Assembly (NCBI GenBank): GCA_963693365.1
Contig: CAVNZM010000003.1
Coordinates: 4,225,106-4,289,105 of the forward strand
Reading direction: 5' to 3'
Source of the DNA: Amoebidium appalachense
Taxonomy: Eukaryota > Protista > Ichthyosporea
Length of the DNA stretch: 64,000 nt
The position numbers and the translations under genes are program-made. Of this stretch, positions 19,732-22,700 are shown in pieces (the stretch's first letter is position 1; each line of letters opens with the position of its first letter). The notes under the pieces were generated by a model, which ran no database searches, was not told where the DNA came from, and was given only the letters and a program-made list of their open reading frames with translations.

Positions 19732-22700
19732 ATGTCGGACGATGAAGACTGCCCGCTGTGCATGGAGCCGTTTGACGTCACGGACAAGAACTTTTTCCCC
19801 TGTCCGTGCGGCTACCAAATATGCGGCTTTTGCTGGCACCGACTGAGGAATGAGTCGACGGGTCTGTGTCCGGCCTGTAGGCGGCCGTTTGATGAACACC
19901 CGGCCAACTTTACTCCTATGACGAGCGAGGCGTAAGTGTTCAAGCTAGATGGTGGTGATTGTTGTTTGTTGTTTTGGTACGCGGTTTGTGGGGGGGTGGG
20001 CACGCACGCGCGCGCGCACGCACGCACGCACGCACGCACGCACGCACGCACGCACGCACGCACGCACGCACGCACGCACGCACGCACGCACGCACGCACG
20101 CACACACACACACACACACACACACACACACACACACACACACACACAAGACAACTCCCATTGACAAAGGGTGCCTGTGCGCATACACACACAGACATGG
20201 GCACGTGTCACACACACACTCACACAGACACACACACACACTCTCTCTCTCACACACAGAACATGCACGCACACACACACACACATACCCACACACACAC
20301 AGACCCCTTTCTTCTCTTCTTTCTTCGACTCTCCATATCTCTTTCGCTCTTAAACACAACACCTTCACCGTTTATCGTATTATCTTTTCTTTTCCTACTG
20401 CCCTTTTTGGGAAGGTGTTGGGGAGGATGAGGTGGGGGTGGGGTGGGAGGAGGGAGGGGGGAGGGGGGCACCAGGTGAAGGTGGTGTGGTGGTTTGTGGG
20501 GGGGGAGGGGAGGGGAGGGAGAGGAGAGGGGCAGGGCAGGGAGAGAGAAGGGTAAGAACAAGTATCTATCGAGTATCGAAACTCTGTTGTTGTGTGTGTG
20601 TGTGTGTGTGGGGGGGGGGGGGGGGGGGGGGGGAGGGGGGGGAGAGAGAGAGAGAGAGAGAGAGAGAGAGAGAGATGGAGAGAGAGAGATAGAGAGAGAG
20701 AGAGAAGGATGGGGGGGAGGGGGGGGGGGGGGAGGGGGGGGACTGGGTAAAGGGGGGAAGGGCAGGGGAGGGGAGGAACAAGAAGGGGAAGAACAAATAT
20801 TGTTCGAGTATTGAGACTTTGTTGTTATGCAGTTTCGACCAGATCAAGCAAGATAAGAAACGGAGGGAGGTTGAACGGAAGCAGAAGGACCCAGGCAACA
20901 GACGCAACCTGCAGCACATACGTGTGGTCCAGAGGAACTTGGTCTATGTGTGGGGCCTGCCCCCGCGCCTGGGAGATGAGGAGGTGTGTGTGGTGTGTGT
21001 GTGTGTGTGTGTGTGTTCCCTCGTGTGTGTCTGTTTGTGACTAAAGAAATGTGGTTTATGCGTGTGTGTGTGTGTGTGTGTGTGTGTGGTTGGAGGGGGA
21101 AGGCGAGGGCGAGGGGGGGGGGGGGGGGTTTAAGTATGAGTGTGTGTGTGGTGCAGAGGAACTTGATCTATGTGTGGGGTCTGCCCCCCCGCCTCGGAGA
21201 TGAGGGGGTGTGCACGTGTGTGTGTGTGTGTGTGTGTGTGTGTGTGTGTGTGTGTGTGTGTGTGTGTGTGTGTGACCAAATAAAATGGGTTTGTGTTTGT
21301 GTGTGTGTGTGTGTGTGTGTGTGTATGTGTGTGTGGATAGAGGGGAGGGGGGGGGGGGGGGGGGGAGGTTTAAGGATGGTGTGTGTGGTCCATAGGAACT
21401 TGGTCTATGTGTGCTGGTGTTGTTGGTGTATGTGTGTGTGCGTGGGTTAAAGGAATTAGTTGGTTGGCTCTGTCTATACGAATTCTAATCCCCGTTTTAG
21501 AGTTTATGCAATGCCATACAAACAAATATCTAACATATGCCGACTTATTAGACTTTTTAACTTCCACTTTGCTGTTTCCTCTTCCACAAGTTGCACAAAG
21601 TATTTTGCATTTGCTGAAGTTGTGCCATGGGCGCAGGTTTTGAGACGCAATGAGAACTTTGGCCAGTATGGCCGCATACTCAAGCTGGTGGTGACTAAAA
21701 ACAACTCCCACAATGGCAGCTTTCAGGTTTATATACCCCCCCCCCCCCCCCCCCCCCCCCCCCATTTTTCGCTGCACTGCATTAGTTTGCACACACATCT
21801 TCACCGTTTTGCTCACCTTGCTTGCATAAGCAACCCTGCTCGTCTTTGATCAAGACGGGTTGACCCGCCCAAGTCCAGTTGATGCTGCTGTCTGAGTTGG
21901 AGCGTCGTATATACGCGGGCTAAGGGGTCGAAACTCAGACGCAATTGATGACTTGGGTCCTCCCTGAGGATGGGCTCTGCTTATGACGCATACTGTGCGC
22001 ATGGCTGATGTTGCATACTTGAATGTGTGCCTTTGCATGTGCCCTGCACCATGCTTCTCGTCGTGTATGCGTACTTCGTACCGTGTTCCGCATTCAAACC
22101 CCCCCCCCCCCCCCCCCCCCCCCCCGGGGGAGCTTCCTAGAAGCCCCGTCTCCTGAGTTCCTATCTATATTTTTCTTGCTTCTGCTTACTGCTGCAACTT
22201 TAATCCCCGGCCTTTCCCACTGCCCTCTCCTGCATAAGCAACCCTGCTCGTCTCTGATCAAGACGGGTGACCTACCCATGTTCAAGTGAAACAGTATCTG
22301 AGTTGGGTTTCGTTAACGAGGTGAATAGGTCGAAACTCGGGTACTGTGGATGACGTGGGCCCCCCCTGAGGATGGGCTCTGCTTATATGCATACTCTTTA
22401 TGTATGGCTTGCATTCTGCATCGTGTTATCCGTTTGTTCTTGTGTACTTCGTACTTTTTGACGCATTCAACCCCCCCCCCCCCCCCCCCCCCTCCCCCCC
22501 CCCTCCCCACCGTCGCCCTTTCCCTTTGACAGGCTTTCACAAGAAAAAGGAAACAAGACAGAGAGGGGGAGGGAGGGGGAGGTAGATGGATATGGGTGGA
22601 GGAAGGGGGAGAGAGAGGAGAGAAGAGAGAGAGAAAGAGAGGTGGTTTTTGTATGAAGCAAGAGGCAGGAAGGGGGGGGGGGGGGGGGGGGGGGGGGGGG

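Follow-up and report, generated by a model that had tools for sequence, protein, structure and literature searches.

The 64,000-nucleotide stretch of contig CAVNZM010000003.1 analysed here (the window) is eukaryotic, with many introns, and is rich in simple repeats; it has 146 C or G runs of at least 12 letters, totalling 3,646 bases. Exon 19732-19899 encodes a RING domain and is part of a CNOT4/NOT4 gene, and a later intron of that gene contains two copies, both in the sense orientation, of a short repeat flanked by runs of C, (C)n. The two copies represent different subfamilies, here A and B, and each has at its centre a domain of about 160 nucleotides (nt), originally predicted to be a covarying, pseudoknotted RNA fold. 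We identify the fold as a putative hammerhead ribozyme, predicted to self-cleave, in a wiring for which we found no published description. On balance we favour the reading that it is an active hammerhead with a split core, belonging to a non-autonomous element of Penelope type that likely inserts into (C)n. What can be read directly from the sequence are the motifs, five hammerhead-type helices, compensation in each of stems I to III as well as in helix P3, a high copy number, copies shortened at the 5' end, two copies standing head to tail, and flanking C-runs. The intron and the three full copies are as follows.

21727-22968 (+): GT-AG intron of CNOT4 (NOT4), within the RRM coding region, placed by comparing the joined exons with a homolog
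21764-22098 (+): copy of subfamily B, followed head-to-tail by A with a C27 run between them; its core is 21824-21985, with the cut predicted after 21898
22126-22470 (+): copy of the (C)n-flanked repeat belonging to subfamily A and shortened at its 5' end, where a C-run stands; shares 98% identity with the copy at 60.4-60.7 kb
60353-60723 (-): second subfamily A copy, full core 60428-60596; about 25 more 5' bases pair the leader

The CNOT4 exons joined across the intron match EukProt protein CFRG1465T1 at 61% identity over 66 amino acids (aa) with one gap, and the same protein is the top match (74% identity) of the 56-aa RING exon. We take the prefix CFRG to denote the ichthyosporean Creolimax. 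The host lineage is thus likely ichthyosporean by its RING exon, a single 56-aa exon being a thin basis.

Hammerhead motifs and helices of the domain

All three full copies have the core elements C3-A9 (CUGANGA), G12-A14 (GAA), A15.1-U16.1, H17 and G10.1-C11.1. In copy A these fall at GUU (22302-22304), GAAA (from 22332) and CUGAGGA (from 22366), with the cut predicted after U22304, and after U21898 in B. Helices of the original prediction find their places around this core: its crossing helix is stem II, followed by GAAAC, its P4 is stem III, and its P3 is a brace between stems I and II. Stem I (22305-07/22363-65) had been overlooked, as had the hammerhead motifs of the core. The stems adjoining the core measure 3-4 base pairs (bp) for stem I (3 in A, 4 in B), 5-6 bp for stem II and 9-13 bp for stem III. 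The blocks stand in the non-circular order S-G-C, with S at -63/-67 and G at -34 relative to C3. The parts of the domain in copy A are these.

22234-22244 (+): 5' strands of P1 and P1', pairing with 22380-86 and 22374-76; inserted between A9 and G10.1
22246-22268 (+): P2 hairpin, with invariant stem and the palindrome UGAUCA in its loop; second helix of the inserted four-way junction
22269-22274 (+): stem II 5' strand (10.x; G10.1 is 22269) and a single purine linker, 22274 (variable G/A/U at B 21867)
22275-22281 (+): P3 5' strand, bracing the distal ends of stems I and II; partner 22353-22359; corresponds to the type-SGC interaction helix
22285-22291 (+): internal loop separating P3 from stem III; opposite 22347-22352 it has tandem G.A/A.G and U.U, and it resembles a kink-turn
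22292-22307 (+): block S, with stem III 5' strand (U16.1 is 22303), H17 (U22304), predicted cut 22304/22305 and stem I 1.x (22305-22307)
22310-22319 (+): 10-nt palindrome in the linker from 1.x to 11.x (B 21906-21915, other sequence); possible dimer contact
22326-22346 (+): block G, with stem II 3' strand (C11.1 is 22331), G12, A13 and A14 (22332-34), A15.1 and stem III 3' strand
22353-22373 (+): P3 3' strand, stem I 2.x (22363-65), CUGAGGA (22366-72) and an extra U after A9 (22373)
22374-22386 (+): 3' strands of P1' and P1

A descriptor with contiguous blocks in any order matches only the three full copies on the two strands of the window, and a looser split descriptor adds two weak places with a stem III of 4 bp. 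None of 20,000 dinucleotide shuffles per copy reaches the observed stem lengths, while 33 and 38 of 20,000 pass the loose descriptor. Rfam gives no match in the window at gathering threshold. Among its three sub-threshold matches in 21700-22520, two of them chance, the type I hammerhead model aligns 22269-22342 weakly (E 4.9, below gathering) and pairs the crossing helix as stem II. Hammerhead types I-III, which have a nested three-way junction and the circular order C-G-S, are ruled out on either strand, the order here being S-G-C. The hepatitis delta virus (HDV)-like, twister, pistol, hatchet, hairpin and Varkud satellite (VS) folds were set aside by their consensus and the Rfam outcome. The proposal of an unrecognised ribozyme stands in its ribozyme half and falls in its claim of an unknown class, since all hammerhead core nucleotides and stems I-III are present. 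We consider the 160-nt fold very probably hammerhead-derived. That it cleaves measurably and site-specifically is a prediction that we hold with less assurance, as more likely than not.

Every helix originally proposed was verified pair by pair: P1 (7 bp, 22234-40/22380-86), P2 (8 bp, 22246-53/22261-68), P3 (7 bp, 22275-81/22353-59; B 21868-74/21951-57), P4 (12 bp, 22292-303/22335-46, or 13 with a flanking A-U) and the crossing helix that makes the pseudoknot (22269-74/22326-31; B 21862-66/21925-29). The reported exchanges are present as well, from A to B a U-G to A-U in P3, an A-U to G-C and a U-G to U-A in P4, and a U-A to C-G in the crossing helix, together with a C-G to U-G in P3 of the 60.5 kb copy. 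The apical 10-mers, said to differ between A and B, do so, and both are perfect palindromes. The argument for selection at the RNA level, drawn from strand-specific wobble pairs, agrees with folding energies, as the plus strand folds better than the minus strand (-53.2 versus -42.8 kcal/mol in A, -63.9 versus -58.5 kcal/mol in B).

Subfamilies A and B are 79% identical and are the only two that can be aligned. Between them, 11 substitutions fall across 44 pairs, breaking none and including four compensatory doubles, one each in stem I (G-C to A-U), stem II, stem III and P3. With the 11 changes placed at random, no pair was broken in 0-82 of 200,000 trials, and at least four compensatory doubles arose in 2-11 of 200,000; the control flatters the result, since these very sequences were used to derive the structure. 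A column-shuffle control (23/500) is weak, having only three rows. P1 and P2 are invariant between A and B and so are without covariation support. The 3' strand of P1 differs in the third-subfamily remnant at 2420, where this helix may therefore covary. A similar depth of about 4% was seen for the two stem II changes 22273 T>C and 22327 A>G in three of four sequencing runs; these may be B-like records.

Copy B folds better than its shuffles (z -3.06, 0/200 as stable). In the ViennaRNA ensemble of the B element, P1 and P3 are kept at probabilities of 0.93-1.00 (P1 0.98) and P1' at 0.80; the program is unable to form stems I and II, which are pseudoknots. Leader segment 22153-65 of the copy at 22126 can pair with block G (-11.6 kcal/mol). 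Since the leader of the 60.7 kb copy is instead taken up by upstream bases and stem III is able to form, the decoy is likely an effect of truncation.

Core wiring compared with type-SGC hammerheads

Hammerheads of S-G-C order were validated from metatranscriptomes by Eckert et al. 2023 (PMC10085705), with non-circular forms almost only in environmental sequence. In the type-SGC alignment rows CUGAUGA is usually followed by a U; next come a stem II of 5 bp, a linker that is mostly one purine, and a helix that braces against the strand preceding stem I. Our domain shares with type-SGC the S-G-C order, GGUC-GAAAC, G10.1-C11.1, the U after A9 and three mutually crossing stems. Read from 22269, it also proceeds as those rows do (PMC10085705), through a 5-bp stem II and a mostly single-purine linker to the brace. 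P3, a covarying helix of 7 bp, supplies the brace that links the strand lying 3' of 10.x to the one lying 5' of 2.x.

The domain differs from type-SGC in that 10.x lies 97-102 nt upstream of CUGAGGA with P1 and P2 inserted, and further in its stem I of 3-4 bp, its longer linkers with a palindrome, and its N7, which is G. The published type-SGC hammerheads come from metatranscriptomes, are at most 104 nt long and include no case from the genome of a known organism (PMC10085705), whereas ours sits in a high-copy eukaryotic repeat. The RNAMotif pattern published by Eckert et al. has CUGAUGA[U]G, a stem I of 4-7 bp and linkers of up to 8 and 15 nt (PMC10085705). Compared by hand, it fails here on N7, on the 3-bp stem I of A and on linker length, and we do not file the domain as type-SGC.

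The placement of stem II is what sets the wiring apart. Its upstream strand makes a more stable helix than the contiguous alternative (-7.3 versus -2.6 kcal/mol in A, -8.7 versus -5.6 kcal/mol in B), and the bases directly after CUGAGGA offer only a G-U-rich helix without a brace strand. Because the 5' strand of stem II stands some 100 nt upstream of CUGAGGA, the core is interrupted by P1 and P2, which are predicted to make a four-way junction. On this predicted pairing the domain is a permutation of the SGC/CSG circle, opened within block C, with P1 closing it. Eckert et al. took block C to tolerate no interruption beyond 1-2 bases (PMC10085705). Core insertions in PMC3088659 are of only 1-2 nt, and the hammerheads of Penelope-like elements (PLEs) commonly have one base between A9 and G10.1 (PMC4209133). 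We found no split hammerhead core in the literature within our coverage, which left aside most subscription papers and bioRxiv supplements, on permuted and SGC hammerheads, A9/G10.1 insertions, four-way junctions, and Naiad or ichthyosporean Penelope-like elements.

How such a core might close can be proposed from the connectivity. P1' and P2 are one U apart on one strand, and the other strand enters P1' from A9-U and exits P2 into G10.1. In a four-way junction, P1/P1' and P2 would stack on each other and pass across both the core and stem II, placing A9 (plus one U) beside G10.1; with P1' stacked on P2, A9 and G10.1 would thus lie one nick apart and the core could form. P3 would have to span the distance between the far end of stem III and the top of stems I and II, and the kink-turn-like loop would bend it back to brace these two stems. 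The kink-turn consensus is a 3-nt bulge followed by G.A and A.G pairs. B has a 3-nt bulge (21944-46) and then G.A/A.G, and A has G.A, A.G and U.U with an irregular bulge. The invariant P1/P2 part may possibly serve as a scaffold for binding a reverse transcriptase (RT), as was originally suggested.

Palindromes occur at two places, a 6-mer in the P2 loop and a 10-mer in the linker, the latter differing in sequence between A and B. Any 10-mer palindrome arose in 962 and 1664 of 100,000 linker shuffles, the arms being partly shared by descent. It is speculative that the palindromes could pair two molecules.

The carrier repeat and Penelope-like elements

The window holds three full cores and at least eight remnants with 5' truncation, among them these.

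19283-19382 (+): 5'-truncated A remnant, beginning at a C30 run just past the core motif
1-92, 2420-2580, 2827-2964, 3638-3697, 27588-27640, 29792-29911, 32558-32711: further remnants

On the ribozyme strand, C-runs follow all ten listed copies and precede seven of the nine that are readable. C-runs on both sides likely fit insertion into (C)n. The long leader hairpin of the 60.7 kb copy (60660-60723, - strand) lacks its upstream arm in the copy at 22126, so subfamily A exceeds 345 bases; the copy at 60353-60723 is probably the longer of the two. A third (C)n-flanked subfamily, whose tail differs, is represented by remnants at 2330-2406, 2420-2580, 2666-2820 and 508-657, and the copy at 2420 retains the bases following the core motif. 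Many of the window's 146 C/G runs may be targets or remnants of (C)n-flanked elements.

In three of four sequencing runs, between 8,076 and 14,752 contig records fall on the 707 bases examined, and the summed depth is 10^5 to 10^6, against 5-40 for most long diverged records, depth not being copy number. We infer tens of thousands of element copies. Among the contig pieces listed for three runs, 14 of 30 align only from 22231-22250 to 22363-22407, with 11-24 differences; these are confined to the P1-closed domain, which points to further subfamilies that keep the domain alone. In the fourth run, one contig links the 3' part of B through 127 other letters to the 5' part of B, and another reaches 417 letters 5' of 22138. 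Bearing on a pseudo-LTR (long terminal repeat) structure, then, are a contig that joins B 3' to B 5' and the head-to-tail pair in the intron, which consists of two different subfamilies. Outside these data, 114 loci from viral (1 and 27) and prokaryote (86) collections were taken as chance: nhmmer found nothing at E 10, and a covariance model applied to 100 of the 114 gave one match at E 0.039. Scans of metagenome contigs for the domain returned 0 and 0 loci.

Two earlier proposals bear on this repeat. Many truncations were said to start near CCCTGAGGATGGGCTCTG; as RNA ends they are poor candidates, because the predicted cut lies 60 nt upstream, and the joining of the internal C-run to a (C)n target would explain them better. 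The description of the fold as an intronic non-coding RNA is apt for its location in the CNOT4 intron only, as the fold moves with a dispersed, high-copy repeat.

Naiad and Chlamys elements provide a close comparison for the carrier. Chlamys elements target (CA)n and (C)n and have head-to-tail non-autonomous copies, and Naiads target (TA)n, with no canonical hammerhead reported (Craig et al. 2021, PMC8557442). With these non-autonomous PLEs our repeat shares microsatellite targeting, 5' truncation, head-to-tail copies and very high copy number. Inspecting the supplement to PMC8557442 by eye, we recognise this split wiring where several Naiad consensuses terminate on their 3' side. Of 50 out of 61 motif places, six have it clearly and one more weakly, and Naiad headers follow five of the seven. 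The likeness rests on wiring, rather than on primary sequence or a partner open reading frame (ORF), and 'ichthyospor' does not occur in that paper's main text. Four 3'-end passages in the Naiad part of that supplement have, by eye, a contiguous C-S-G hammerhead, a type known to Eckert et al. from two metagenome sequences (PMC10085705); possibly the contiguous C-S-G form is the precursor of the split form. We consider it probable that the partner RT is of Penelope type.

With non-LTR retrozymes (10.64898/2026.07.22.740005) and PLE hammerheads (PMC4209133), the repeat shares a short, non-coding, hammerhead-bearing form, tandem copies and the PLE link, as well as the base between A9 and G10.1 and palindromes linked to dimer folding. 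In those systems the hammerheads are type I or minimal with nested stems, whereas the present domain has a non-circular order, a long stem III and palindromes placed in the linker and in the P2 loop. Non-LTR retrozymes are recognised by a type I hammerhead in each tandem unit, and the topology here is not type I.

In the mechanism that we propose, cuts at successive ribozymes in tandem or circular transcripts would release unit-length RNA (406 nt between the two cut sites of the intron), which a Penelope-type RT-endonuclease acting in trans would copy into (C)n. A broader proposal, which we offer tentatively, is that an active split-core hammerhead, with the rest of the element hanging off its four-way junction, is the ribozyme of PLEs with an N-terminal endonuclease, from animals to unicellular holozoans; here it would be present in tens of thousands of (C)n-targeted copies, cutting inside introns such as that of CNOT4 and tuned by palindrome dimerisation.

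Alternative explanations and neighbouring features

A number of observations weigh against an active split-core ribozyme in a Penelope-type carrier. H17 is U in these copies, a choice termed unfavourable in PMC1636495, though U stands at position 17 in 10 of the 34 rows of the PLE hammerhead table (PMC8557442). Stem I is short, at 3 bp (A) and 4 bp (B). Taken alone, copy A is no more stable than its shuffles (z -1.03, 33/200 as stable). In the ViennaRNA ensemble of the whole A element, the probabilities of P1 and P3 are 0.00-0.13, and a CCC/GGG hairpin forming locally in A, which would mask stem I and the core, equals P1' at -41.2 kcal/mol. Two minor variants disturb helices and have no compensating change among those listed: 22359 G>C, at 4-5%, would disrupt the terminal pair of P3, and 22265 G>A, at about 10% in one sequencing run, disrupts a pair of P2. 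The remnants of the window begin at or past the internal C-run and not at the cut, and depth has no clear step at either predicted cut, nor any loose end there among those listed. As to the carrier, no RT or GIY-YIG family was found among the 101 distinct ORFs of the window, a comparison of low sensitivity. By eye, no split design was seen in the Chlamys places of the PMC8557442 supplement, though (C)n targeting suggests Chlamys over Naiad.

One way to account for much of this is that the fold is hammerhead-derived but has lost cleavage, or cleaves only with a protein, and is kept as a scaffold for RT recognition or dimerisation. The short stem I, U17 and the poor predicted folding of A would then be unsurprising, as would element ends that are not seen at the cut and a P1/P2 part more conserved than the catalytic stems; minimal PLE hammerheads, moreover, cleave weakly in vitro (PMC4209133). 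Such a scaffold explains less well why all catalytic nucleotides are kept in two subfamilies of 79% identity with compensation in all three stems, and no variant of at least 3% occurs at core positions in four runs, a weak point given that only 29 of 707 places show any. We regard this alternative as unlikely. Less probable still in our view is an ordinary contiguous type-SGC hammerhead, with stem II made from the bases after CUGAGGA-UG and the strand at 22269 serving as an off-switch decoy. A descriptor with a 2-nt insertion does pass in all three copies (stem II of 4 bp in A and 6 bp in B), and A, B and the remnant at 2432 all keep the bases downstream. That helix, however, is weaker and rich in G-U pairs, its position 5 in A is a C.A at a place where covariation is seen for the upstream helix, and no brace strand comes after it, whereas the upstream strand is followed by a purine and the brace, as in the published SGC rows (PMC10085705).

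Alternatively, the ribozyme reading may be right and the carrier a short interspersed nuclear element (SINE) of a non-LTR element of the long interspersed (LINE) type, with a poly(C) tail or a (C)n target, rather than Penelope-like. Fixed 3' ends before a C-run and variable 5' truncation would also suit target-primed reverse transcription by LINEs; no PLE ORF was found among the ORFs of the window. Yet truncated copies too have C-runs before them, which speaks for a target and not for a tail; sequence on either side of the cut belongs to the element; one contig links B's 3' part to its 5' part through 127 letters; and the same wiring is recognised by eye in Naiad PLE consensuses (PMC8557442). 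A LINE-type carrier is in our judgement improbable.

If the reading of a split-core hammerhead in a Penelope-type element is right, a high-copy eukaryotic repeat would contain a topology outside the six permutations of Eckert et al. (PMC10085705), and its split wiring would explain why descriptor and Rfam searches miss such ribozymes. It would also supply the ribozyme that Naiad/Chlamys elements reportedly lacked and extend these elements to an ichthyosporean-like lineage. The role of hammerheads in Penelope-like elements would become testable with a 170-nt transcript. Sense copies within introns raise the matter of how host pre-mRNAs tolerate them, and a junction that tolerates two helices inside the core could serve ribozyme engineering.

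Elsewhere in the window, host exons encode a cytochrome P450 (7014-7496 and 14585-15223, - strand), a surface protein with EGF repeats and an SdrD_B domain (53918-55900, - strand) and a PAP2 phosphatase (96-620). Identical 315-base direct repeats at 48166-48480 and 51601-51915 enclose ORFs 48474-49481 and 50300-51352, of which the second resembles a tyrosine recombinase by eye and has no Pfam match; this arrangement is possibly a young non-autonomous DIRS/Ngaro-like element. Frameshifted copia-like pol pieces (Pol_BBD, gag_pre-integrs, SH3_retrovirus), followed by what is by eye a gypsy-like RT fragment, lie at 42745-44176 and 44696-45889.

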